44,859 nucleotides of DNA from a phage: the sequence record PX290280.1. One strand, given 5' to 3'. How positions within the stretch are numbered: the first letter of the stretch is position 1; every line of letters begins with the position of its first letter. A model generated the notes under the pieces. It saw only the letters and a program-made list of their open reading frames with translations, was not told the DNA's origin and did not search any database. The position numbers and the translations under genes were made by a program. Below, in pieces: positions 34,801-44,859 of this stretch.

Positions 34801-35200
34801 AAAAGCCTATGTGAACTCTATTGGTCGAGAAGACCAAGATGAATATTTGGAAGAGAAGTTATCGCCTAAAGGGTTGGCCTTTGGTGCAATGGGTATGATG
34901 AGTACAACTGCTGTATTTAGTCTAGGTGGAGATTTCTTAGGTGGCCTAGGTGTTCTACCTTCTGAGTTAGTACAATCCCGTTATGAGGCTGGCTTTCAGA
35001 CTAAGGGTTTGATAGACCAAATACCACTAGTAGGTGTTGGTCAAGATGCATATCGTTTAGCAGATTCTATAACTAAATACGCAGAGGGTGATACAGAAGG
35101 TGTAGATGTGGCACGTAGGGCTTTACGCTTAGTGCCTCTAGCTAATGTAATAGGAATCCAGAACGCATTGCGTTATGGCTTAGATGAACTGGAGGATTAA
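31892..35200 (+). CDS. Large internal virion (core/ejection) protein
   Basis: 1102 aa; GGAGG ribosome-binding site; synteny with T7 gp16-class proteins. Confidence 0.65.
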   Translation: MEQDIKTNWAGYVQSTPEPFSIEAAPVSAPTIRQRNELQEQVLEAKADADILGAVGAAFQNEWLAFGGKRWYDRATADFTPQPDFEIQPEQREALRFKYGTDMMQTITEGVRSEDELNFRIQNADEDLERNKRIAQAGWVGSVATIGAAVLDPVGWVASIPTGGAAKVGLVGRAVRGAIAAGVSNAAIESVLVQGDMTRDLDDIMVALGSGMAMGGVIGAVARGRATKLSEQGDDRAASIVRSADAGDRYVRAVADDSIGAMRVKGEEVLTEGAFDVSSKGEDLLKTLQREGNAIDMTPRRWAGTLSALGTVVHSSQDASVRGLGARLFESPQGLGMQKASASLMQNTNLNRLKSADMNRFNDGFDLWLKENNINPVAGHTNSHYVQQYNEKVWEAVRIGMDESTPKSIRMAAEGQQAMYREALALRQRSGEAGFEKVKADDKYMPDIFDSMKARRQFSMHDKEDIIELFSRAYQNGSRKVPKEVADDIARAQVNRVADATLTGQLSFEKAMSGQTKAEYEALMRKAGFSDEEIEKMVEALDNKETRDNISNRAKMSLGLDVTQEYNGIRMRDFMNTNVEELTDNYMKEAAGGAALARQGFSTYQAALNAIDLVERNARNAAKDTKAHAQFEAESAKIRQSEPDYKKAQEKIEELKKRLKLKEKDEAAGLAIDEEIRQMREGLRLIMGKSIDSNPQDLSTKMLRRGRDITGVLRLGQMGFAQLGELANFMGEFGIAATTMALGKQFRFTSKALRNGDGFFRDKNLAEVERMVGYIGEDNWLTTKGARPDEFGDVTTVRGMMAHFDQSMNSIRRAQTNLSLFRMAQGSLERMTNRQIALSFIDHLEGKKIIPQKKLEELGLTQEFMTNLQKHYDANSKGSGLLGFDTMPYAMGETLANAIRRKSGLIIQRNFIGDEGIWMNKALGKTFAQLKSFSLVSGEKQFGRGIRHDKIGLAKKTAYGFALGSIVYAAKAYVNSIGREDQDEYLEEKLSPKGLAFGAMGMMSTTAVFSLGGDFLGGLGVLPSELVQSRYEAGFQTKGLIDQIPLVGVGQDAYRLADSITKYAEGDTEGVDVARRALRLVPLANVIGIQNALRYGLDELED

Positions 35201-36162
35201 TGAGTTATACTTTCACAGAACATATAGCCAACGGTACGCAAGTAACCTATCCCTTTAGCTTTGCTGGTAGGGATAAAGGTTATCTTCGTGCCTCAGATGT
35301 GATAGTGGAGTCTCTTCAAGGTAACACTTGGATTGAGGTTACATCTGGCTGGCAACTAACTGGCACGCACCAGATTACTTTTGATGTAGCACCAGTTGCA
35401 GGTTTGAAGTTCCGTATTCGAAGGGAAGTACAAAAGGAGTATCCATACGCTGAGTTTGACCGTGGTGTTACCTTGGATATGAAGTCTTTAAATGGTTCTT
35501 TCATTCATATACTGGAGATTACACAGGAGTTACTTGACGGGTTTTATCCAGAAGGATACTTCATTAAACAGAATGTAAGCTGGGGCGGCAATAAGATTAC
35601 TGATTTGGCTGATGGCACAAATCCTGGAGATGCAGTAAATAAAGGGCAGCTTGATGCCATCGACAAGAAGCATACAGATTGGAACGCCAAACAGGACATT
35701 GAGATTGCTGGCCTTAAGGCTGGTATGACTTCTGGTATTGCGCACAGAACTGTTCCTTGGTACACGATAGCCCAAGGTGGTGAGATTTCCGTAAAACCAC
35801 CTTATGAATTTCAAGATGCACTAGTTTTCCTTAATGGGGTATTGCAGCACCAAATTGTAGGCGCATACTCTATAAGCAACAACACTATCACTTTCGCAGA
35901 GCCGCTTGTGGCGGGTACAGAGGTGTATGTGCTGATTGGTAGTCGTGTGGCTACATCTGAACCTAATATTCAGTTAGAGTTGAACTTTGACTTAGTAGAA
36001 GGCCAACAAGTAGTACAGATTGGCTCTGCATTTAAGTACATTGAGGTCTACCTTGATGGATTATTACAACCTAAACTTGCTTATCAGGTAGACGGTGACA
36101 TTGTTACTTTCTCAGAAAGAGTACCAGAATGCCGGATGACTGCTAAGATTATCACAGCATAA
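35200..36162 (+). CDS. Tailspike adaptor protein (equivalent to the T7 gp17 N-terminal domain)
   Basis: 320 aa and located where T7 gene 17 sits; the two tailspikes are encoded separately at the genome end, as in SP6/K1-5-type phages. Confidence 0.65.
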   Translation: MSYTFTEHIANGTQVTYPFSFAGRDKGYLRASDVIVESLQGNTWIEVTSGWQLTGTHQITFDVAPVAGLKFRIRREVQKEYPYAEFDRGVTLDMKSLNGSFIHILEITQELLDGFYPEGYFIKQNVSWGGNKITDLADGTNPGDAVNKGQLDAIDKKHTDWNAKQDIEIAGLKAGMTSGIAHRTVPWYTIAQGGEISVKPPYEFQDALVFLNGVLQHQIVGAYSISNNTITFAEPLVAGTEVYVLIGSRVATSEPNIQLELNFDLVEGQQVVQIGSAFKYIEVYLDGLLQPKLAYQVDGDIVTFSERVPECRMTAKIITA

Positions 36163-36171
36163 GGAGGTGGG

Positions 36172-36366
36172 ATGATTAACTCCGAACTGGTAGATAGTGG
36201 TGTGAAGCTTGCGCCACCTGCACTCGTATCAGGTGGGTACTTCCTCGGTATCAGTTGGGATAATTGGGTGTTAATAGCAACATTCATTTATACCGTGTTG
36301 CAAATTGGGGACTGGTTTTATAATAAGTTCAAGATTTGGAGGGAGAAGCGTGAGCGTACACAATAA
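36172..36366 (+). CDS. Holin (T7 gp17.5-like)
   Basis: 64 aa; NWVLIATFIYTVLQIG parallels the T7 holin segment EWFYVAAIAYTVVQIG as recalled; AAGGAGG ribosome-binding site. Confidence 0.7.
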   Translation: MINSELVDSGVKLAPPALVSGGYFLGISWDNWVLIATFIYTVLQIGDWFYNKFKIWREKRERTQ

Positions 36367-36649
36367 ACATGCAGCTACAGAGGACGAGGTTGGCATTCTG
36401 CATGGTGCTATTACCAAAATCTTCAATAAGAAAGCACAGGCAATACTGGACACTATAGAAGAAGACCCTGATGCAGCATTACATTTAGTGTCTGGTAAGG
36501 ATATTGGTGCGATGTGTAAGTGGGTTCTTGATAACGGCATTACCGCCACACCTGCTGCACAGCAGGAAGAGTCCAAGTTATCTAAGCGCCTCAAGGCTAT
36601 CCGAGAGGCATCCAGTGGTAAGATAATTCAATTCACTAAGGAGGATTGA
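36350..36649 (+). CDS. Terminase small subunit
   Basis: GTG start 4-5 nt after GGAGGGA; position directly upstream of the large subunit. Confidence 0.55.
   Translation: MSVHNKHAATEDEVGILHGAITKIFNKKAQAILDTIEEDPDAALHLVSGKDIGAMCKWVLDNGITATPAAQQEESKLSKRLKAIREASSGKIIQFTKED
36441..36463 (+). promoter_or_regulatory. Partial phage promoter inside the terminase small-subunit gene
   Basis: CAATACTGGACACTATAGAAGAA: core conserved, upstream ATTTA missing. Confidence 0.45.
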
Positions 36650-38547
36650 TGGCTAAGGCAAGAGAATCACAAGCGGAGGCTCTTGCCAGATGGGAGATGC
36701 TACAGGAGTTACAGCAGACCTTTCCTTACACAGCGGAAGGTTTGCTTCTCTTTGCAGATACAGTTATTCATAACTTAATTGCAGGCAACCCTCATCTGAT
36801 TCGTATGCAGGCGGATATCTTGAAGTTCCTATTTTACGGACACAAGTACCGCCTCATCGAAGCGCCTCGTGGTATCGCTAAGACAACACTATCAGCAATC
36901 TATACGGTATTCCGTATTATTCATGAACCGCATAAGCGTATCATGGTTGTGTCCCAAAACGCCAAGCGAGCAGAGGAAATCGCAGGTTGGGTAGTTAAAA
37001 TCTTCCGTGGCTTAGACTTTCTTGAGTTTATGCTGCCGGATATCTACGCTGGGGACCGTGCATCCGTTAAGGCGTTTGAGATTCATTACACCCTACGTGG
37101 TAGTGATAAGTCTCCTTCTGTATCCTGTTACTCAATCGAAGCAGGTATGCAGGGTGCTCGTGCTGATATTATTCTAGCGGATGACGTAGAGTCGATGCAG
37201 AATGCTCGTACGGCAGCGGGCCGTGCCTTGCTTGAGGAACTGACTAAGGAGTTTGAATCTATCAACCAGTTTGGGGATATCATTTACCTTGGTACACCTC
37301 AGAACGTAAACTCTATCTACAACAACCTACCTGCTCGTGGTTACTCTGTTCGTATCTGGACTGCGCGTTACCCTTCAGTAGAGCAAGAGCAATGTTATGG
37401 CGACTTCCTTGCACCTATGATTGTTCAAGATATGAAGGACAACCCAGCACTTCGCTCAGGGTACGGGTTGGATGGTAATAGTGGTGCACCTTGTGCCCCT
37501 GAAATGTATGATGATGAAGTCCTGATTGAGAAGGAAATCTCTCAGGGTGCTGCTAAGTTCCAGCTTCAGTTCATGCTTAACACTCGCATGATGGATGCTG
37601 ACAGATACCCATTACGCCTGAACAATCTAATCTTCACCTCGTTTGGTACAGAGGAAGTCCCTGTGATGCCTACGTGGAGTAATGATTCCATAAACATCAT
37701 TGGTGATGCACCTAAGTATGGTAACAAGCCTACGGATTTCATGTACAGACCTGTAGCTCGCCCATACGAATGGGGTGCTGTCTCCCGCAAGATTATGTAT
37801 ATTGACCCTGCGGGTGGTGGTAAGAACGGAGATGAGACGGGTGTAGCCATCGTATTCCTGCACGGCACATTCATTTATGTGTATCAGTGCTTTGGTGTAC
37901 CTGGCGGATACCGAGAGTCGTCCCTGAATCGCATTGTGCAGGCCGCAAAGCAGGCGGGTGTTAAAGAGGTATTCATTGAGAAGAACTTTGGTCATGGCGC
38001 GTTTGAGGCGGTAATTAAGCCGTACTTTGAACGAGAGTGGCCTGTAACTCTGGAAGAGGATTACGCCACCGGACAGAAAGAGTTGCGTATCATTGAGACG
38101 CTGGAGCCGCTCATGGCAGCCCATAGGCTTATCTTCAATGCAGAGATGGTGAAGTCAGACTTTGAGTCGGTACAGCACTATCCGCTTGAACTACGCATGT
38201 CCTACAGTCTTTTCAATCAAATGTCGAACATAACGATTGAGAAGAACAGCCTCCGGCACGATGACCGCCTAGACGCCCTGTATGGCGCTATACGGCAATT
38301 AACTTCTCAGATAGACTATGACGAGGTTACACGGATTAATCGCCTCAGAGCGCAGGAGATGCGCGATTACATCCATGCTATGAACACACCTCATCTACGC
38401 AGGGCAATGCTATATGGAGATTACGGTACTGAGCGAAGAGTGACCAACACTTCCGTAGCGATGCAGCAGCGAGTTTACGGGCAGAACTACCGAAATAAAT
38501 CGGCAAGCAGAAATACACTTTCTGCAAGGATTTCAAGGACTTATTAA
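36649..38547 (+). CDS. Terminase large subunit
   Basis: 633 aa; Walker A-like EAPRGIAKTT; AAGGAGG ribosome-binding site; synteny. Confidence 0.85.
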   Translation: MAKARESQAEALARWEMLQELQQTFPYTAEGLLLFADTVIHNLIAGNPHLIRMQADILKFLFYGHKYRLIEAPRGIAKTTLSAIYTVFRIIHEPHKRIMVVSQNAKRAEEIAGWVVKIFRGLDFLEFMLPDIYAGDRASVKAFEIHYTLRGSDKSPSVSCYSIEAGMQGARADIILADDVESMQNARTAAGRALLEELTKEFESINQFGDIIYLGTPQNVNSIYNNLPARGYSVRIWTARYPSVEQEQCYGDFLAPMIVQDMKDNPALRSGYGLDGNSGAPCAPEMYDDEVLIEKEISQGAAKFQLQFMLNTRMMDADRYPLRLNNLIFTSFGTEEVPVMPTWSNDSINIIGDAPKYGNKPTDFMYRPVARPYEWGAVSRKIMYIDPAGGGKNGDETGVAIVFLHGTFIYVYQCFGVPGGYRESSLNRIVQAAKQAGVKEVFIEKNFGHGAFEAVIKPYFEREWPVTLEEDYATGQKELRIIETLEPLMAAHRLIFNAEMVKSDFESVQHYPLELRMSYSLFNQMSNITIEKNSLRHDDRLDALYGAIRQLTSQIDYDEVTRINRLRAQEMRDYIHAMNTPHLRRAMLYGDYGTERRVTNTSVAMQQRVYGQNYRNKSASRNTLSARISRTY

Positions 38548-38619: not shown

Positions 38620-38717
38620 GGTTAACCTAGGTTATATAGGTATGCCTTAGTATGGGTGTACTCCTGTACACCCTATTCCTTACTTCCTTACTATATTTAC
38701 ATAATAGGAGAGAGACA

Positions 38718-38996
38718 ATGGCTAATGATTATAGTAGTCAACCATTAACAGGTAAGTCTAAGAGAAAGCAGGTACAACCTGTAAGTGAAGAACTAATGCT
38801 TCCGGTAATCCCAAAAGAGGCAGCTAGTAAGAAAAGCAATGTTATTAATGATGCCACCAAATCAGGTAAACAGAAAGGGGCCATGGTATGCCTTGAAGTG
38901 GAAGGTGGTGTATTGAAGGTTGCTATCGCGGTTGATGGCAAAGAAGATTCAGAGTGGAAGTTAGTAACAGTGGAACCAGCTGTTAACCCAGTTTAA
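38718..38996 (+). CDS. Small late protein, paralog 1 (92 aa)
   Basis: AGGAGAGAG ribosome-binding site; shares SGKQKGAMV-LE...L-IAVA block with the next ORF. Confidence 0.6.
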   Translation: MANDYSSQPLTGKSKRKQVQPVSEELMLPVIPKEAASKKSNVINDATKSGKQKGAMVCLEVEGGVLKVAIAVDGKEDSEWKLVTVEPAVNPV

Positions 38997-39014: not shown

Positions 39015-39308
39015 ATGGCTAAATATGGTACTACAGGTTCTGTTACTGGTCAGGCTTTTCGAGTAAAAGCAGTACAAACTATTGCAACGGCAATCCCGAT
39101 GCCTGTTGTTAAAGAAGCAGACCTTAATAGTAAAGATCACCCTATCAACATCAAACATTTATCAGGTAAACAGAAAGGTGCAATGGTTGCTCTTGAGAAA
39201 AGTGACACAACCTTACATATTGCTGTTGCACGTGGTAGTGAACCAACAGACCCTTGGGATGTAACTGGCATGGAATCGCTCGCTGTCACTCCAGCAGGTG
39301 AAGAATAA
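39015..39308 (+). CDS. Small late protein, paralog 2 (97 aa)
   Basis: AAGGAGG ribosome-binding site; paralogous to 38718..38996. Confidence 0.6.
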   Translation: MAKYGTTGSVTGQAFRVKAVQTIATAIPMPVVKEADLNSKDHPINIKHLSGKQKGAMVALEKSDTTLHIAVARGSEPTDPWDVTGMESLAVTPAGEE

Positions 39309-39652
39309 TGCTTAACAAATACTTCAAGCGCCGTGAGTTCGCTTGCCGTTGTGGGTGCGGTACATCCACTGTTGATGCTGAATTACTACAGGTAGTCACA
39401 GATGTGCGTGAGCACTTTGGTTCCCCTGTAGTTATCACTTCGGGGCATCGCTGTGCTAAGCACAATGCTAATGTAGGAGGAGCTAAGAACTCCATGCATC
39501 TTACTGGTAAGGCTGCTGACATTAAAGTGTCTGGCATATTACCTTCTGAAGTGCATAAGTATCTTACTAGCAAATACCAAGGCAAGTATGGTATCGGTAA
39601 GTATAACTCCTTCACTCACATCGATGTACGGGATGGTTGTGCGCGATGGTAA
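39308..39652 (+). CDS. Endolysin, zinc peptidase M15-type
   Basis: ITSGHRCAKHN...GGAKNSMHLTGKAADI matches the SG-R...N...S-H..G-A-D signature of M15 cell-wall peptidases. Confidence 0.8.
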   Translation: MLNKYFKRREFACRCGCGTSTVDAELLQVVTDVREHFGSPVVITSGHRCAKHNANVGGAKNSMHLTGKAADIKVSGILPSEVHKYLTSKYQGKYGIGKYNSFTHIDVRDGCARW

Positions 39653-39777: not shown

Positions 39778-39910
39778 GTCTAAGAAGGTTGTAGGTGCAC
39801 TGGTTGCACTTGTTATTGCTCTTGTTTCTGTAGGCCTTGGTGTAGACCTTGGCTCTGGCACGGAATCCTCTGTGACAGATGTGGTCTGCCAAGTGATTAC
39901 CTGTGAATAA
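39761..39910 (+). CDS. Small single-pass membrane protein (49 aa), possible second holin or antiholin
   Basis: GGGAG ribosome-binding site; N-terminal KK-rich region, then transmembrane helix VGALVALVIALVSVGLGV. Confidence 0.5.
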   Translation: MKKLFKSKKVVGALVALVIALVSVGLGVDLGSGTESSVTDVVCQVITCE

Positions 39911-40124
39911 GTTTCTAGAAGTGCTGGCAGGTCTTATTGGCCTGCTTGTCTCTGCTAAGAAGAAACAAGAAGAGAAGGAGGCACAAAGTGAAGCGAATCA
40001 TGCTAGCGACAATCCTGCTGATTGGTTCGCTGACCACTTCCGGGTGTCAGCAGGCGTTACCAGAGAAAGCAATGGTGAAACCTCTGGGGCCGACGCTGAC
40101 GGCAGTTTACGAGGTGGAAGATAA
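39903..40124 (+). CDS. i-spanin-like protein (Rz-like)
   Basis: N-terminal transmembrane helix FLEVLAGLIGLLVSA followed by a charged region; overlapped by the lipoprotein ORF. Confidence 0.5.
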   Translation: MNKFLEVLAGLIGLLVSAKKKQEEKEAQSEANHASDNPADWFADHFRVSAGVTRESNGETSGADADGSLRGGR

Positions 40125-40197
40125 GGTCTGTTTCAGTAAGCCTGACGCTACAAAACTTGGTCTGTACATTCTTTCGCTAGAACGAGGATATAATTAA
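39988..40197 (+). CDS. o-spanin-like outer-membrane lipoprotein (Rz1-like)
   Basis: GTG start 6 nt after AAGGAGG; signal peptide with lipobox LTTSG-C; overlaps the i-spanin ORF in another frame. Confidence 0.6.
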   Translation: MKRIMLATILLIGSLTTSGCQQALPEKAMVKPLGPTLTAVYEVEDKVCFSKPDATKLGLYILSLERGYN

Positions 40198-40226
40198 TAC
40201 ATAACTTTATGTATCAGTGTCTTACG

Positions 40227-40249
40227 ATTTACTGGACACTATAGAAGGA
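40227..40249 (+). promoter_or_regulatory. Phage RNAP promoter upstream of the tailspike genes
   Basis: ATTTACTGGACACTATAGAAGGA. Confidence 0.8.
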
Positions 40250-40326
40250 GGAAGAGTGCCGTTCAAATGAACGGCCTATTACTAGCCAATCTTCATAGGG
40301 AGGGTTGGGAAGTAATAGGAGGTTTA

Positions 40327-41766
40327 ATGGCTAATATTACCAAACCTGTCACAACTGGTATTATACATGAAGGAAGGCTGCTATCAGATTATCTAAAACA
40401 AGCATGGGATAACACCTTACACGCTGATAACTACTTTGTTAGTGTTAAAGACTTTGGCGCTAAGGGTGATGGCTCTGCTGATGATACTGCTGCATTCAAA
40501 GCTGCACTTGCTTCTGGTAAGAATGTATATATCCCTGTAGGTATTTATATAATTAGTGAGACTTTGTATTTTAAGAATCAGGTTATAAAAGGGGGCGGAA
40601 TAGCACCTATTCCGAGTCTTGGTACAATACTTGCAATCTCACACAGTGAGCCTGCATTGAAATATGATGTAAGTGCAGGTTACTCTATGGGTGGTTATTT
40701 AGGTGGGTTCTTCATAGATTATGGAGAGAACAAACCAGATAACTATGCAGGCAGAAAAGGCATAGATCTAGGTGATGCCGACCAACAAGCATGGCCTTCT
40801 CAATTTATCATTGAGAACATCATTGTCCGTGGTGCATACTTTGGTTTGCATGATGAAACAGGAGCATTCCAATACTCAATGCGCAATGTGGTTGCTATCA
40901 ATTGCTGGGAGGGGTTCCGTAAGTTCACTGGAACTACAGTCCTTATGGATACATGCTATGCGCTTAATTGCTATCAAGCATATAGACTGGCTAATGTTTA
41001 TAATATGACAATGAATAACTGCGCCATGGATGGATGCAATGATATCCAAGGTTTACAGGCATTTGATATTACAAACTGCAAAGGTCTTGTGATAAATGGC
41101 ATGTATAGTGAGAATTGTGAGATCCATCATAGTGGTAATGCTTCTATATTTATTCATGGAGATTCTACAGTAACAATCAACGGTTATGCCTTACACTCGC
41201 ATAATGTCGTTGTTGATCCATCATCTGGAAGTGAAGAAGCATACTTTCTTAGAGCGCACGACAGCTCTAGGGTCAATGTAGATGGAATCTTCTTCGGTGA
41301 GAACCTTAAATCTACTAGTATCTTCACCTACCCAATTATGGCCTCTGGTGAGTCTAGAATTAAGCTAGGAACTACAGCACTTAAGGCATGGGTAGGTGCT
41401 AAGGGTGGTGCATCTATGGCTGCTGTTGGAGATAGTCTCATTGAATATGACAATACCGTATTTAACCCATCACTTACTGCAGGTTGGTGCAGTAATAATG
41501 GTGTTGTAGCTAAAGGGACACTAGTTGTAAACACAACATTAGAACCTAATGCAGATTTAAATGCAGGAACTATACAATTAGTTGGTGACTATAAACCAAA
41601 TAAAGGTGATGTTCTTACATATGGTTCTACTTTCGATGTTCAATCATGTGCTATTATTCTGAAGCCACAAGGTGATAATAGTTGTAATGTTTACATTAAA
41701 AACCTAAGTGCAGGTAGTAGTGTTACACTTAACGGAATATTGCACGTACAGGCAATTCGTAGGTAA
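40327..41766 (+). CDS. Tailspike 1: beta-helix polysaccharide depolymerase-like
   Basis: ATG 40327 with AGGAGG ribosome-binding site; VKDFGAKGDGSADDTAAFKAAL signature of pectate-lyase-type beta-helix proteins; no T7 gp17 N-terminal domain. Confidence 0.75.
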   Translation: MANITKPVTTGIIHEGRLLSDYLKQAWDNTLHADNYFVSVKDFGAKGDGSADDTAAFKAALASGKNVYIPVGIYIISETLYFKNQVIKGGGIAPIPSLGTILAISHSEPALKYDVSAGYSMGGYLGGFFIDYGENKPDNYAGRKGIDLGDADQQAWPSQFIIENIIVRGAYFGLHDETGAFQYSMRNVVAINCWEGFRKFTGTTVLMDTCYALNCYQAYRLANVYNMTMNNCAMDGCNDIQGLQAFDITNCKGLVINGMYSENCEIHHSGNASIFIHGDSTVTINGYALHSHNVVVDPSSGSEEAYFLRAHDSSRVNVDGIFFGENLKSTSIFTYPIMASGESRIKLGTTALKAWVGAKGGASMAAVGDSLIEYDNTVFNPSLTAGWCSNNGVVAKGTLVVNTTLEPNADLNAGTIQLVGDYKPNKGDVLTYGSTFDVQSCAIILKPQGDNSCNVYIKNLSAGSSVTLNGILHVQAIRR

Positions 41767-41850
41767 TCACAGGCAGTGCTTACGCACTGCTTTTCGCGCA
41801 ACTTTTCTTAAAGGTTATCATGATGGTAGCCTTTCAGAAGAGGAGGTTAC

Positions 41851-44286
41851 ATGATTCAAAGACTAGGTTCTTCATTAGTTAAATTCAAGAGTAAAATAGC
41901 AGGTGCAATCTGGCGTAACTTGGATGACAAGCTCACCGAGGTTGTATCGCTTAAAGATTTTGGAGCCAAAGGTGATGGTAAGACAAACGACCAAGATGCA
42001 GTAAATGCAGCGATGGCTTCAGGTAAGAGAATTGACGGTGCTGGTGCTACTTACAAAGTATCATCTTTACCTGATATGGAGCGATTCTATAACACCCGCT
42101 TCGTATGGGAACGTTTAGCAGGTCAACCTCTTTACTATGTGAGTAAAGGTTTTATCAATGGTGAACTCTATAAAATCACGGACAACCCTTATTACAATGC
42201 TTGGCCTCAAGACAAGGCGTTTGTATATGAGAATGTGATATATGCACCCTACATGGGTAGCGACCGTCATGGTGTTAGTCGTCTGCATGTATCATGGGTT
42301 AAGTCTGGTGACGATGGTCAAACATGGTCTACTCCAGAGTGGTTAACTGATCTGCATCCAGATTACCCTACAGTGAACTATCATTGTATGAGTATGGGTG
42401 TATGTCGCAACCGTCTGTTTGCCATGATTGAAACACGTACTTTAGCCAAGAACGAACTAACCAATTGTGCATTGTGGGATCGTCCTATGTCTCGTAGTCT
42501 GCACCTTACTGGTGGTATCACTAAAGCTGCAAATCAGAGATATGCAACAATCCATGTACCTGATCACGGACTATTCGTGGGCGATTTTGTTAACTTCTCT
42601 AATTCTGCGGTAACAGGTGTATCAGGTGATATGACTGTTGCAACGGTAATAGATAAGGACAACTTCACGGTCCTTACACCTAACCAGCAGACTTCAGATT
42701 TGAATAACGCTGGAAAGAGTTGGCACATGGGTACTTCTTTCCATAAGTCTCCATGGCGTAAGACAGATCTTGGTCTAATCCCTAGTGTCACAGAGGTGCA
42801 TAGCTTTGCTACTATTGATAACAATGGCTTTGTTATGGGCTATCATCAAGGTGATGTAGCTCCACGAGAAGTTGGTCTTTTCTACTTCCCTGATGCTTTC
42901 AATAGCCCATCTAATTATGTTCGTCGTCAGATACCATCTGAGTATGAACCAGATGCGTCAGAGCCATGCATCAAGTACTATGACGGTGTATTATACCTTA
43001 TCACTCGTGGCACTCGTGGTGACAGACTTGGAAGCTCTTTGCATCGTAGTAGAGATATAGGTCAGACTTGGGAGTCACTGAGATTTCCACATAATGTTCA
43101 TCATACTACCTTACCTTTTGCTAAAGTAGGAGATGACCTTATTATGTTTGGTTCAGAACGTGCAGAAAATGAATGGGAAGCAGGTGCACCAGATGATCGT
43201 TACAAGGCATCTTATCCTCGTACCTTCTATGCACGATTGAATGTAAACAATTGGAATGCAGATGATATTGAATGGGTTAACATCACAGACCAAATCTATC
43301 AAGGTGACATTGTGAACTCTAGTGTAGGTGTAGGTTCTGTTGTAGTTAAAGACAGCTACATTTACTATATCTTTGGTGGTGAAAACCATTTCAACCCAAT
43401 GACTTATGGTGACAACAAAGATAAAGACCCATTTAAAGGTCATGGACACCCTACTGATATATACTGCTATAAGATGCAGATTGCAAATGACAATCGTGTA
43501 TCTCGTAAGTTTACATATGGTGCAACTCCTGGTCAAGCTATACCTACTTTCATGGGTACTGATGGGATACGAAATATCCCTGCACCTTTGTATTTCTCAG
43601 ATAACATTGTTACAGAGGATACTAAAGTTGGACACTTAACAATTAAAGCAAGCACAAGTTCCAATATACGATCTGAAGCGCAGATGGAAGGTGAATATGG
43701 CTTTATTGGCAAGTCTGTTCCAAAGGATAACCCAACTGGTCAACGTTTGATTATTTGTGGTGGAGAAGCGACTTCGTCCTCTTCAGGTGCACAGATAACT
43801 TTGCACGGCTCTAATTCAAGTAATGCTAATCGTATCACTTATAACGGAAATGAGCACCTATTCCAAGGTGCACCAATCATGCCTGCTGTAGATAACCAGT
43901 TTGCTGCTGGTGGACCTAGTAACCGATTCACTACCATATACCTAGGTAGTGACCCTGTTACCACTTCAGATGCTGAACACAAGTACGGTATCTCTAGTAT
44001 TAATACCAAGGTGTTAAAGGCTTGGAGTAGAGTTGGTTTTAAACAGTATGGTTTGAATAGTGAAGCAGAGAGAAGTCTTGATAGCATACACTTCGGTGTC
44101 TTGGCTCAGGATATTGTAGCTGCTTTTGAAGCTGAAGGGTTAGATGCCATTAAGTATGGAATTATGTCATTCGAAGAAGGTAGGTACGGTGTGAGGTATA
44201 GTGAAGTTCTAATCCTAGAGGCTGCCTACACTCGCCATCGTCTTGATAAATTAGAGGAGATGTATGCCGCTAATAAAATCAGTTAA
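41851..44286 (+). CDS. Tailspike 2: endosialidase-like, with a C-terminal intramolecular chaperone domain
   Basis: 811 aa; two sialidase Asp-boxes SGDDGQTW and SRDIGQTW; C-terminal about 105 aa with an S-D junction typical of self-cleaving chaperone domains. Confidence 0.75.
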   Translation: MIQRLGSSLVKFKSKIAGAIWRNLDDKLTEVVSLKDFGAKGDGKTNDQDAVNAAMASGKRIDGAGATYKVSSLPDMERFYNTRFVWERLAGQPLYYVSKGFINGELYKITDNPYYNAWPQDKAFVYENVIYAPYMGSDRHGVSRLHVSWVKSGDDGQTWSTPEWLTDLHPDYPTVNYHCMSMGVCRNRLFAMIETRTLAKNELTNCALWDRPMSRSLHLTGGITKAANQRYATIHVPDHGLFVGDFVNFSNSAVTGVSGDMTVATVIDKDNFTVLTPNQQTSDLNNAGKSWHMGTSFHKSPWRKTDLGLIPSVTEVHSFATIDNNGFVMGYHQGDVAPREVGLFYFPDAFNSPSNYVRRQIPSEYEPDASEPCIKYYDGVLYLITRGTRGDRLGSSLHRSRDIGQTWESLRFPHNVHHTTLPFAKVGDDLIMFGSERAENEWEAGAPDDRYKASYPRTFYARLNVNNWNADDIEWVNITDQIYQGDIVNSSVGVGSVVVKDSYIYYIFGGENHFNPMTYGDNKDKDPFKGHGHPTDIYCYKMQIANDNRVSRKFTYGATPGQAIPTFMGTDGIRNIPAPLYFSDNIVTEDTKVGHLTIKASTSSNIRSEAQMEGEYGFIGKSVPKDNPTGQRLIICGGEATSSSSGAQITLHGSNSSNANRITYNGNEHLFQGAPIMPAVDNQFAAGGPSNRFTTIYLGSDPVTTSDAEHKYGISSINTKVLKAWSRVGFKQYGLNSEAERSLDSIHFGVLAQDIVAAFEAEGLDAIKYGIMSFEEGRYGVRYSEVLILEAAYTRHRLDKLEEMYAANKIS

Positions 44287-44413
44287 GCAAGCTGCTGTAC
44301 GCCAGAACGCAGAAGAACTTATTCAATCAGGACGTGACCCTAAGCAGGCATACGCCATTGCCAAGGATGTACAACGTCGTGCCTTGAAGAAACCTTCTGC
44401 ATCTTCTGCTTAA
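44264..44413 (+). CDS. Small basic protein at the right end (50 aa)
   Basis: GAGGAG ribosome-binding site 4 nt upstream; overlaps the tailspike stop. Confidence 0.4.
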   Translation: MPLIKSVKQAAVRQNAEELIQSGRDPKQAYAIAKDVQRRALKKPSASSA

Positions 44414-44419
44414 GCAGGT

Positions 44420-44859
44420 TAATATCTTAGTGTACACAAGGGCAGACCTAGGTTTGCTCTTAGTGTAATCCAAGGAGGTAACATGCAAGAGGGGAATTGG
44501 GATGTGTAATGTTGGATATGGAGAAGGTTGAACCTTAGTGTTGTACAAGGATTAACCAAAGTCAAAATTTTGATATAGGCGTGTGTGAGGTGTCTCGCCC
44601 TCGCCCTCGCCGGATTTCCCCCATATGGGGCCGCGCTGCGGTTGGCTTGGGAATTGGGCTAGGCTGGTCCGTCTTCGACGGGTGGCCTAGGGCTTGCCGA
44701 AGTCTGCTCTTAGTGGCTGCACAAGGAGAACGCCTAGGAAGCGCTAGGGCACGCCTTAGTATTGGACAAGGTGATTGCCTTAGCGCAACCGCTTAGGGCT
44801 TACACAGGCCGTTTTAGGGCCATTCCTGAGCATTTGACAGGGTGAGCGTGGGTGGGCTA
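44420..44859. repeat. Right-end repeat region, GC-rich, probably part of the terminal repeat
   Basis: Reiterated CTTAGTG-N(6-9)-CAAGG units; 44438-44454 is identical to 6549-6565; GC content clearly above the genome average. Confidence 0.55.

Follow-up and report, generated by a model that had tools for sequence, protein, structure and literature searches.

General features of the genome and the spike locus

The window, a stretch of 44,859 nucleotides (PX290280.1), is a K1E/K1-5-like Vectrevirus genome, full-length at approximately 44.9 kb and with the same gene order as K1-5; positions 44553-44859 match the annotated terminal repeat of phage Mt1B1_P10. The phage is a further isolate of the group formed by the published phages T145_P2 (OZ035747), AL505_P3 (OZ035802) and Mt1B1_P10 (MT496971), from which it shows point differences only. 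Region 40200-44400 is 97-99% identical to these three at the DNA level and the backbone 94-97%; Mt1B1_P10 has an additional small ORF between the terminase genes. The right end of the genome carries both spike genes. A sequence-only reading had placed two separate tailspikes there, and both open reading frames were recovered on the + strand: spike 1 (40327-41766, 479 aa) and spike 2 (41851-44286, 811 aa). As in K1-5, the two adjacent genes stand behind a phage promoter and are separated by a spacer with a conserved hairpin. The layout is textbook K1-5 except for the gp46 slot, which carries another cassette in place of the K5 lyase.

An SP6/K1E-type phage RNA polymerase promoter (ATTTACTGGACACTATAGAAG; 40227..40247, + strand) is located upstream of the spike cassette. 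It is one of eight matches to the SP6 promoter consensus in the window, against zero expected in shuffled sequences, and is identical to three other sites. DNA identity with K1-5 ends at 40347 and returns at approximately 41760 (from 41755-41760 for K1-5 and K1E alike). Immediately downstream, within the 84-nt intergenic spacer, a GC-rich hairpin followed by a T-run (41771..41792, + strand; RNAfold stem AGGCAGTGC/GCACTGCTT) looks like a terminator and marks where the cassette ends on its downstream side. The same promoter and intergenic hairpin surround the gp46 slot of K1-5, and recombination between this conserved hairpin and the first seven codons, which are also conserved, probably brought in the spike 1 cassette.

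The adaptor gene

A gp37-type tail adaptor of 320 aa is encoded at 35200..36162 (+ strand). Its product is identical to K1-5 gp37 at 319 of 320 residues (99.7%), matches phrog_2710 (tail fibre, E=1.6e-148) and carries at residues 3-153 the Phage_T7_tail N-terminal domain (PF03906), which confirms the separate adaptor gene proposed at 35200. The T7 gp17-like tail-binding domain thus lies on gp37, whose gene is separate from the spike genes, and the Pfam search found no PF03906 match in either spike. The adaptor role of gp37 was described by Leiman (2007), as summarised in a review (PMC6966330), according to which the K1-5 virion contains both spikes, with six trimers of each.

Spike 2 is an endosialidase

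Spike 2 has the size of the K1E enzyme, as had been supposed, and is identical to K1E gp47 at 794 of 811 positions and to K1-5 gp47 at 797. All five endosialidase domains of Pfam were found in it. The N-terminal segment (aa 1-38; 41851..41964, + strand), the presumed gp37-binding anchor, is identical in K1E and K1-5 gp47 and precedes the part of endoNF that was crystallised; residues 2-46 match a phage tail fibre structure (7y5s, E=7e-8). The catalytic six-bladed beta-propeller with its nested beta-barrel follows at aa 103-545 (42157..43485, + strand; PF12217, E=8e-224), with PF12195 at residues 214-296 (E=2e-47). It is near-identical to the endoNF crystal sequence (E=0 against PDB) and contains the two Asp-boxes noted earlier, SGDDGQTW (residue 152) and SRDIGQTW (residue 400); formal search recovered the sialidase fold. 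The stalk, or tail-spike domain (triple-beta-helix/beta-prism; aa 546-705; 43486..43965, + strand; PF12219, E=1.8e-84), aligns with endoNF as far as the mature C-terminus of the latter.

The remainder, aa 706-811 and the stop codon (43966..44286, + strand), is the C-terminal intramolecular chaperone domain. It matches PF13884 (Peptidase_S74) at residues 706-763 (E=1e-9) and the endoNF chaperone (PDB 3gw6) with E=1e-58. Within the motif DPVTT-S706-DAEHKYG, Ser706 is followed by exactly 105 residues, as in K1E gp47, in agreement with the proposed K1-type domain of about 105 aa. As a member of this family, spike 2 would be expected to cleave itself at Ser706. The domain set is the same as that of endoNF of phage K1F (PDB 1V0E/3GVL; chaperone 3GW6), the crystallised part of which has a near-identical propeller; endoNF, however, has a T7 gp17-like N-terminal capsid-binding domain, whereas spike 2 has the short K1E-type anchor. 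Spike 2 is 98% identical to the K1E and K1-5 enzymes, both of which have been characterised, and this, together with the K1-associated host range of the sister phages, suggests that it hydrolyses alpha-2,8-polysialic acid.

Spike 1 is a beta-helix protein in the gp46 slot

Spike 1 matches the pectate-lyase-like family PF12708 (E=1.8e-12) and, weakly, Beta_helix. Structure prediction agrees with the beta-helix spike of 479 aa that had been read from the sequence: the AlphaFold2 monomer model (mean pLDDT 84) shows a beta-helix with a beta-sandwich at its C-terminal side. The N-terminal segment (aa 1-35; 40327..40431, + strand; MANITKPVTTGIIHEGRLLSDYL) aligns with the N-termini of the K1-5 K5 lyase and K1E gp46, the resemblance lying in the first 23 residues. 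This is the same short anchor as in K1-5; it is disordered in the monomer model and presumably binds gp37. The right-handed parallel beta-helix (aa ~37-350; 40435..41376, + strand) is the presumed receptor-binding and catalytic domain. The beta-sandwich (aa ~385-479; 41479..41763, + strand; AlphaFold2 strands at 384-478) is conserved in all close homologues through the terminus ...QAIRR, and no chaperone domain was found, with no Peptidase_S74 match in Pfam.

Three acidic residues, D176, D235 and E262, are invariant among nine homologues of 27-98% identity, a conservation observed at the level of sequence in a family whose characterised relatives are not close. Lyases, epimerases and hydrolases all occur among the structural neighbours of spike 1, and the fold therefore does not fix the chemistry. 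The O2 repeat is not known to contain uronic acid, which makes a hydrolase likelier than a lyase if the O2 O-antigen is the substrate.

The amino acid identity of spike 1 is 99.2% to the protein of T145_P2, 98.1% to that of AL505_P3 and 97.9% to that of Mt1B1_P10, where the records give it as a "hypothetical protein" or leave it without annotation. An 81%-identical module forms the C-terminus of the tail fibre in Kayfunavirus pO2. In pO2, Vec13 and UFJF_EcSW4 this body (residues 40-479; 81% protein and ~75% DNA identity) differs in being joined to an N-terminal domain of the T7 gp17 type, giving a sole spike of 676 aa. More distant relatives (27% identity) occur in siphophages from T145 (O2:K1) and ECOR57 (O2:K7). 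The module is found on four phage chassis: the Vectrevirus gp46 slot, the Kayfunavirus gp17 fusion, an N4/G7C-like two-spike module and another 44-kb podophage.

The probable receptor of spike 1

The sister phage Mt1B1_P10, whose endosialidase is ~97% identical to spike 2, uses K1 capsule and O-antigen as alternative receptors, as shown genetically at the level of the whole phage (PMC12361893). Infectivity was lost only when emrR (K1 capsule) and the gene for the O-antigen ligase were both mutated, and clones that became resistant in vivo carried neuB and wzy mutations (PMC12361893). These alternative receptors point to the O-antigen, most likely that of serogroup O2, as the target of spike 1, and we infer that spike 1 is the protein that recognises it. 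Both isolation hosts, Mt1B1 and T145, are O2:H6 K1.

Host range was read from a public interaction matrix of 314 strains. T145_P2 infects 30 of the 35 strains typed K1. Among strains not typed K1, it infects 8 of 12 O2 strains versus 7 of 267 non-O2 strains (Fisher p=3.5e-9, or p=9e-5 when four O2 strains of doubtful capsule typing are left out), p-values that overstate independence since the panel strains are phylogenetically related. Of the eight infected O2 strains, four come from ST79 and ST141, lineages in which K1 is usual, and their capsule may have been mistyped. Both O2:K5 strains are infected, against none of 13 non-O2 K5 strains, and AL505_P3, which has the same two spikes, repeats the infection of O2 strains not typed K1. 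Together, the Mt1B1_P10 literature and the T145_P2 host range indicate that infection depends on both the presence and the type of the O-antigen. Spike 1 would accordingly join the functional class of O-antigen-specific tailspikes, which includes those of P22, Sf6 and HK620, CBA120 TSP2 and SP6 gp46. Considering the Mt1B1_P10 genetics, the O2:K1 hosts, the host range of T145_P2 and the relatives of the module in phages of O2 hosts, spike 1 probably targets the O2 O-antigen.

The reading that best accounts for these data, to which we assign a probability of about 0.7, is a K1-5-type phage that combines an endosialidase spike with a spike 1 most likely directed at the O2 O-antigen. The short tail would carry six gp37 adaptors, and to each of them two different trimeric tailspikes would be attached through short peptides at their N-termini. 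Spike 2 would bind and cut the alpha-2,8-polysialic acid of the K1 capsule, its folding aided by the chaperone that is predicted to cleave itself at Ser706, and spike 1 would most likely bind, and probably hydrolyse, the LPS O-antigen of serogroup O2. That the virion has two specificities, one of them for K1 polysialic acid, had been predicted at the outset, and the formal searches uphold this as a prediction. K1 capsule and O-antigen would then be alternative receptors on one O2:K1 host, so infection would persist after the capsule is lost or switched off; the phage could thus infect cells in either state, plus some non-K1 O2 strains.

The host range also contains observations that suit a different target, with spike 1 still a working virion depolymerase: the rhamnose-rich backbone of O1/O2-type antigens, an epitope linked to the O-antigen, or a waaL/wzy-dependent glycan. 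Four O2:H1 strains (ECOR-57, IAI54, IAI72 and NILS71) resist T145_P2, so O2 is insufficient for infection. The isolation host of AL505_P3 is O1:H7 K1, and UFJF_EcSW4, which bears the 81% homologue, was grown on ATCC 11775, which we take to be O1:K1. T145_P2 also scores weak hits in the O1 strains IAI33 and IAI58 (not typed K1) and in two O9/Klebsiella-K55 strains, NILS06 and PDP110. The O1 hits, however, are either weak or in ST59 strains, which are probably K1, while O2 is strongly enriched among the infected strains not typed K1. The K5 strains divide by O-type as described, and the mutations that give resistance to Mt1B1_P10 affect wzy and the gene for the O-antigen ligase. We therefore consider another target unlikely.

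It is more doubtful that spike 1 binds without enzymatic activity, or is a poorly functional passenger, with the O-antigen route provided by some other factor. Catalytic residues cannot be assigned to it, its PDB sequence matches cover the N-terminal helix cap only, and the truncated gp46 remnant of K1E shows that this slot can decay. Yet the ORF is full-length and 98-99% identical in three other independent isolates, the N-terminal anchor is conserved, the acidic residues along the helix are invariant in homologues at 27-98% identity, and the module is retained on four chassis; nor does the tail region contain a further candidate receptor-binding gene. Finally, it is hardly credible that the true product is the uninterrupted 499-aa frame that opens at the in-frame ATG at 40267, which would give a different N-terminus and perhaps a different attachment or a soluble protein, since this ATG lies only 20 nt past the promoter and lacks a ribosome-binding site, whereas AGGAGG stands directly ahead of 40327, the annotated Mt1B1_P10 and K1-5 homologues have the equivalent start codon, and the N-terminus read from 40327 aligns with residue 1 of the K5 lyase.

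Comparison with K1-5 and SP6

The K1-5-type phage with an endosialidase and a probable O2 spike can be compared with two known systems. K1-5 (gp37, gp46 K5 lyase and gp47; Scholl 2001, Leiman 2007) belongs to the same genus, and its endosialidase is 98% identical. Its gp46, in contrast, is a K5 lyase of 632 aa, and the 479-aa beta-helix spike without chaperone domain that is found here is unrelated to it. In K1-5 the second receptor is another type of capsule, carried by a different host; here it is probably the O-antigen of the same host. SP6 shares the adaptor-based design with two spikes: its gp46, an endorhamnosidase, and its gp47 are both specific for O-antigen and are carried on a rotating V-shaped complex with gp37, so that in SP6 a beta-helix enzyme in the gp46 slot acts on LPS O-antigen (review PMC6966330). 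The SP6 spikes recognise the O-antigens of different serovars, whereas the pair described here would recognise capsule and, as we infer, O-antigen; the spike bodies of the two phages have no sequence relationship.

Biological significance

Earlier publications describe both the K1-5/SP6-type architecture and the dual-receptor phenotype, and the value added here is mainly one of annotation, a name for a protein that GenBank still lists as "hypothetical". With odds that we place slightly above even, spike 1 founds a family of O2-antigen-specific tailspike glycosidases whose module is exchanged between phages of at least four chassis, and its pairing with an endosialidase provides redundant entry into O2:K1 ExPEC/APEC, so that resistance evolves more slowly. 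O2:K1 strains of E. coli are important pathogens, both extraintestinal and avian, and a phage able to enter by way of the K1 capsule or of the O-antigen would be harder to escape. For Mt1B1_P10, two mutations are needed for resistance, and loss of the O-antigen is costly in the gut (PMC12361893). If the O-antigen route were assigned to spike 1, the portable 479-aa module would offer a handle for host-range engineering, and the protein would be a candidate for use as a depolymerase specific for O2 or as a reagent for typing.

The genome and its tailspike region

The genome belongs to a Vectrevirus in the K1E/K1-5 group of SP6-like Autographiviridae, and its nearest records are OZ035802.1 and OZ035747.1 ('Vectrevirus T145P2'), with approximately 97% DNA identity across the left 25 kb. 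Comparison of positions 1-1500 with 43360-44859 found no duplicated terminal repeat in the window; the direct terminal repeat annotated for phage Mt1B1_P10 (P10) has a counterpart only at the right end (44553-44859), and one repeat copy therefore seems to have collapsed during assembly.

Two tailspike genes at the genome end, as the sequence-only reading had proposed, are found on the + strand at 40327-41766 (479 aa, spike 1) and 41851-44286 (811 aa, spike 2). Between 40200 and 44400 the DNA identity is 98.6% with OZ035747.1 (phage T145_P2), 98.1% with OZ035802.1 (phage AL505_P3) and 97.3% with P10, and the match to K1-5 and K1E is restricted to the endosialidase part. Identity with K1-5 stops at 40347 (codon 7 of spike 1) and restarts at 41760, just 5' of the stop codon; the gp46 slot has therefore exchanged one ORF for another almost exactly.

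Eight SP6-like phage promoters, all on the + strand, were identified in the window (2391, 8705, 9592, 13417, 15331, 18532, 23682 and 40227), with none expected by chance. The last, ATTTACTGGACACTATAGAAG (40227-40247, +), precedes the spikes, and its sequence is identical at four of the eight sites. An AGGAGG site lies just 5' of the ATG at 40327, and the 479-aa reading of spike 1 is therefore the correct one; a 499-aa reading from 40267 was excluded by the position of the promoter and ribosome-binding site and by the starts of the homologues. A GC-rich hairpin and then a T-run open the 84-nt spacer between the spikes.

Several neighbouring genes were also inspected. The large-subunit terminase gene directly follows that of the small subunit (36305-38547), without the homing-endonuclease insertion (gp40.5) that splits the K1E terminase and without the extra 444-nt ORF that P10 has at this position. 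The gp41 and gp42 equivalents (38715-38996 and 39015-39308) are adjoining small paralogues, 34% identical (E=5e-13), with a common SGKQKGAMV-LE motif and no Pfam match for either. The ORF at 39308-39652 (Peptidase_M15_3, E=1e-33) is probably the endolysin, and stands apart from a T7-type holin (36172-36366). Just 5' of the spike promoter, the ORFs 39903-40124 and 39937-40197 overlap in different frames, neither with a Pfam match; this arrangement, together with a lipobox-like LTTSGC in 39937-40197, suggests a putative Rz/Rz1-type spanin pair.

The endosialidase and the tail adaptor

By its sequence, spike 2 is a typical endosialidase. Pfam identifies an N-terminal extension, the catalytic beta-propeller (E=8e-224), a nested beta-barrel, a stalk domain and the Peptidase_S74 chaperone domain, and among PDB sequences the protein matches the endoNF crystal structures (E=0) and the endoNF chaperone 3gw6 (E=1e-58). 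The protein has the same length as gp47 of K1E and of K1-5, with 794 and 797 of its 811 residues identical, respectively. Two Asp-boxes are present, at residues 152 and 400, and the C-terminus has a DPVTT-S706-DAEHKYG motif with 105 residues past the serine. The earlier description of an enzyme of K1E size, with two Asp-boxes and a C-terminal part of about 105 aa resembling a self-cleaving chaperone, is therefore correct.

A separate adaptor gene had likewise been placed at 35200. This is gp37 (35200-36162), identical to K1-5 gp37 at 319 of 320 residues and carrying a T7 gp17-type N-terminal tail-binding domain. In K1-5, gp37 attaches two kinds of tailspike to the tail, with six copies of each; K1E keeps gp46 only in truncated form, and in SP6 a V-shaped gp37-gp46-gp47 complex rotates, presenting one or other spike (review PMC6966330).

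Fold and origin of the first spike

The predicted beta-helix fold of spike 1, also anticipated from the sequence, is certain. PF12708 matches where the helix begins (E=1.8e-12), with a weak Beta_helix match, and the AlphaFold2 model built with nine homologues (mean pLDDT 84) consists of a disordered segment (residues 1-35), a beta-helix (approximately 37-350) and a C-terminal beta-sandwich. Foldseek agrees, ranking the O-antigen spikes of LKA1, Sf6, Dettilon and HK620 high. The mechanism is left unassigned because the structural neighbours retrieved by the fold searches are a mixture of hydrolases, lyases and epimerases; a sequence search against the PDB matched no more of spike 1 than the helix's N-terminal cap and gave no functional clue.

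Spike 1 as a diverged form of the K5 lyase, which occupies the gp46 slot in K1-5, was rejected: the alignment covers only residues 1-74, at 39% identity, and the chaperone domain is absent. The first 23 residues are similar to both the K5 lyase and K1E gp46, as expected for a common gp37-docking peptide.

Target of the first spike

The genetics of a sister phage, the isolation hosts, the host range and distant relatives of spike 1 point to the O-antigen, serogroup O2, as its target, which the sequence-only reading had left unnamed in predicting a dual-specificity virion. P10, whose proteins are 97.9% (spike 1) and approximately 97% (endosialidase) identical to those described here, infects an emrR mutant that has lost the K1 capsule and also a mutant in the O-antigen ligase, but fails on the strain combining both defects, and P10-resistant clones recovered from mice have neuB and wzy mutations; the authors concluded that the K1 capsule and the O-antigen are alternative receptors, without matching proteins to receptors (PMC12361893). 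Both isolation hosts, Mt1B1 and T145, have serotype O2:H6 and a K1 capsule (strain table, bioRxiv 10.1101/2023.11.22.567924); the serotype of Mt1B1 comes from this supplement (Gaborieau et al.), its genome paper giving none.

Host range was analyzed by crossing the T145_P2 infection scores of 314 strains, those from ECOR-49 onwards in the matrix, with their O and K types (matrix and types from the same source). T145_P2 infects 30 of the 35 K1-typed strains. Among strains not typed K1 it infects 8/12 of serogroup O2 versus 7/267 that are neither O2 nor K1, with Fisher p=3.5e-9, or p=9e-5 without four O2 strains that belong to usually K1-bearing lineages and may be wrongly capsule-typed; these values exaggerate independence because the panel strains are phylogenetically related. 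The cleanest cases are ECOR-49 and ECOR-50, both O2:K5 (scores 2 and 4), against none of the 13 non-O2 K5 strains (p=0.0095). Serogroup O2 does not suffice for infection: resistance was seen in four O2:H1 strains, of which three are K7.

The seven infected strains that are neither O2 nor K1 comprise three O1, two O9/Klebsiella-K55, the rough strain BL21 and one O77/O17/O44/O106:K5 strain (PDP21). Room should be left for a broader, O1/O2-type specificity, since T145_P2 is weakly positive on O1 strains; AL505_P3 was isolated on an O1:K1 host. On the two O9/Klebsiella-type K55 strains seen (NILS06 and PDP110), T145_P2 and the unrelated siphophage T145_P1 score 2 each and AL505_P3, with the same spikes as T145_P2, scores 0; the positive scores may reflect lysis from without or some effect of the lysate.

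AL505_P3 (OZ035802.1, 44,662 bp) repeats the T145_P2 matches on O2 strains not typed K1. It was considered as a control lacking spike 1 and was dropped as such: it carries the same two spikes (spike 1 at 98.1%) and is a replicate. It is not among the matches listed in a K5-lyase tblastn. CLB_P1 ('Kayfunavirus K1F') was discarded as a K1-only control, its matrix column failing to track K1 strains; the appropriate one would be the endosialidase-only phage MT1B1_P3, which lies outside the matrix columns covered. On strain T145 (O2:K1), AL505_P3 scores 0 and T145_P2 scores 3 despite their common spikes; something beyond receptor recognition, for instance a defence system, restricts AL505_P3 there.

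Relatives of spike 1 on other phages

The body of spike 1 (residues 40-479) shares 81% identity with the C-terminal portion of the 676-aa protein that is the sole tail spike in the Kayfunaviruses pO2, Vec13 and UFJF_EcSW4. For Vec13 and UFJF_EcSW4 the literature gave nothing on receptors, and the pO2 database record gives no host serotype. Relatives with 53-66% identity occur as fusions with a Tail_spike_N domain, and one of these adjoins a second spike on a 71-kb N4/G7C-like contig; another relative is the only spike of a distinct 44-kb podophage. This spread is ordinary modular swapping of receptor-binding domains. On the 71-kb metagenomic contig (L008, 3324-7863), the 53%-identical body with its Tail_spike_N lies directly 3' of an 875-aa beta-helix spike, a further two-spike arrangement built with this module.

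More distant homologues (27% identity over residues 63-319/367) occur in the siphophages OZ035767/OZ035793 (Veterinaerplatzvirus T145P1) and MT511058 (SU57), whose isolation hosts, T145 for the T145_P1-like phages and ECOR57 for SU57, are both O2. Eleven of the 20 strains positive for T145_P1 are O2, mostly irrespective of capsule type. The O2 repeat unit consists of rhamnose, GlcNAc and Fuc3NAc and is not known to contain uronic acid; with such a target, spike 1 would more likely be a glycoside hydrolase than a lyase.

The presence of two different spike genes is confirmed, and their interpretation as a dual-specificity apparatus is supported. The two-spike architecture was already known from the K1-5/SP6 paradigm, and this exact pair occurs in published phages with demonstrated dual K1/O-antigen receptor use. 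The sole increment is the reasoned assignment of a 'hypothetical' 479-aa protein as a candidate O2-directed spike.
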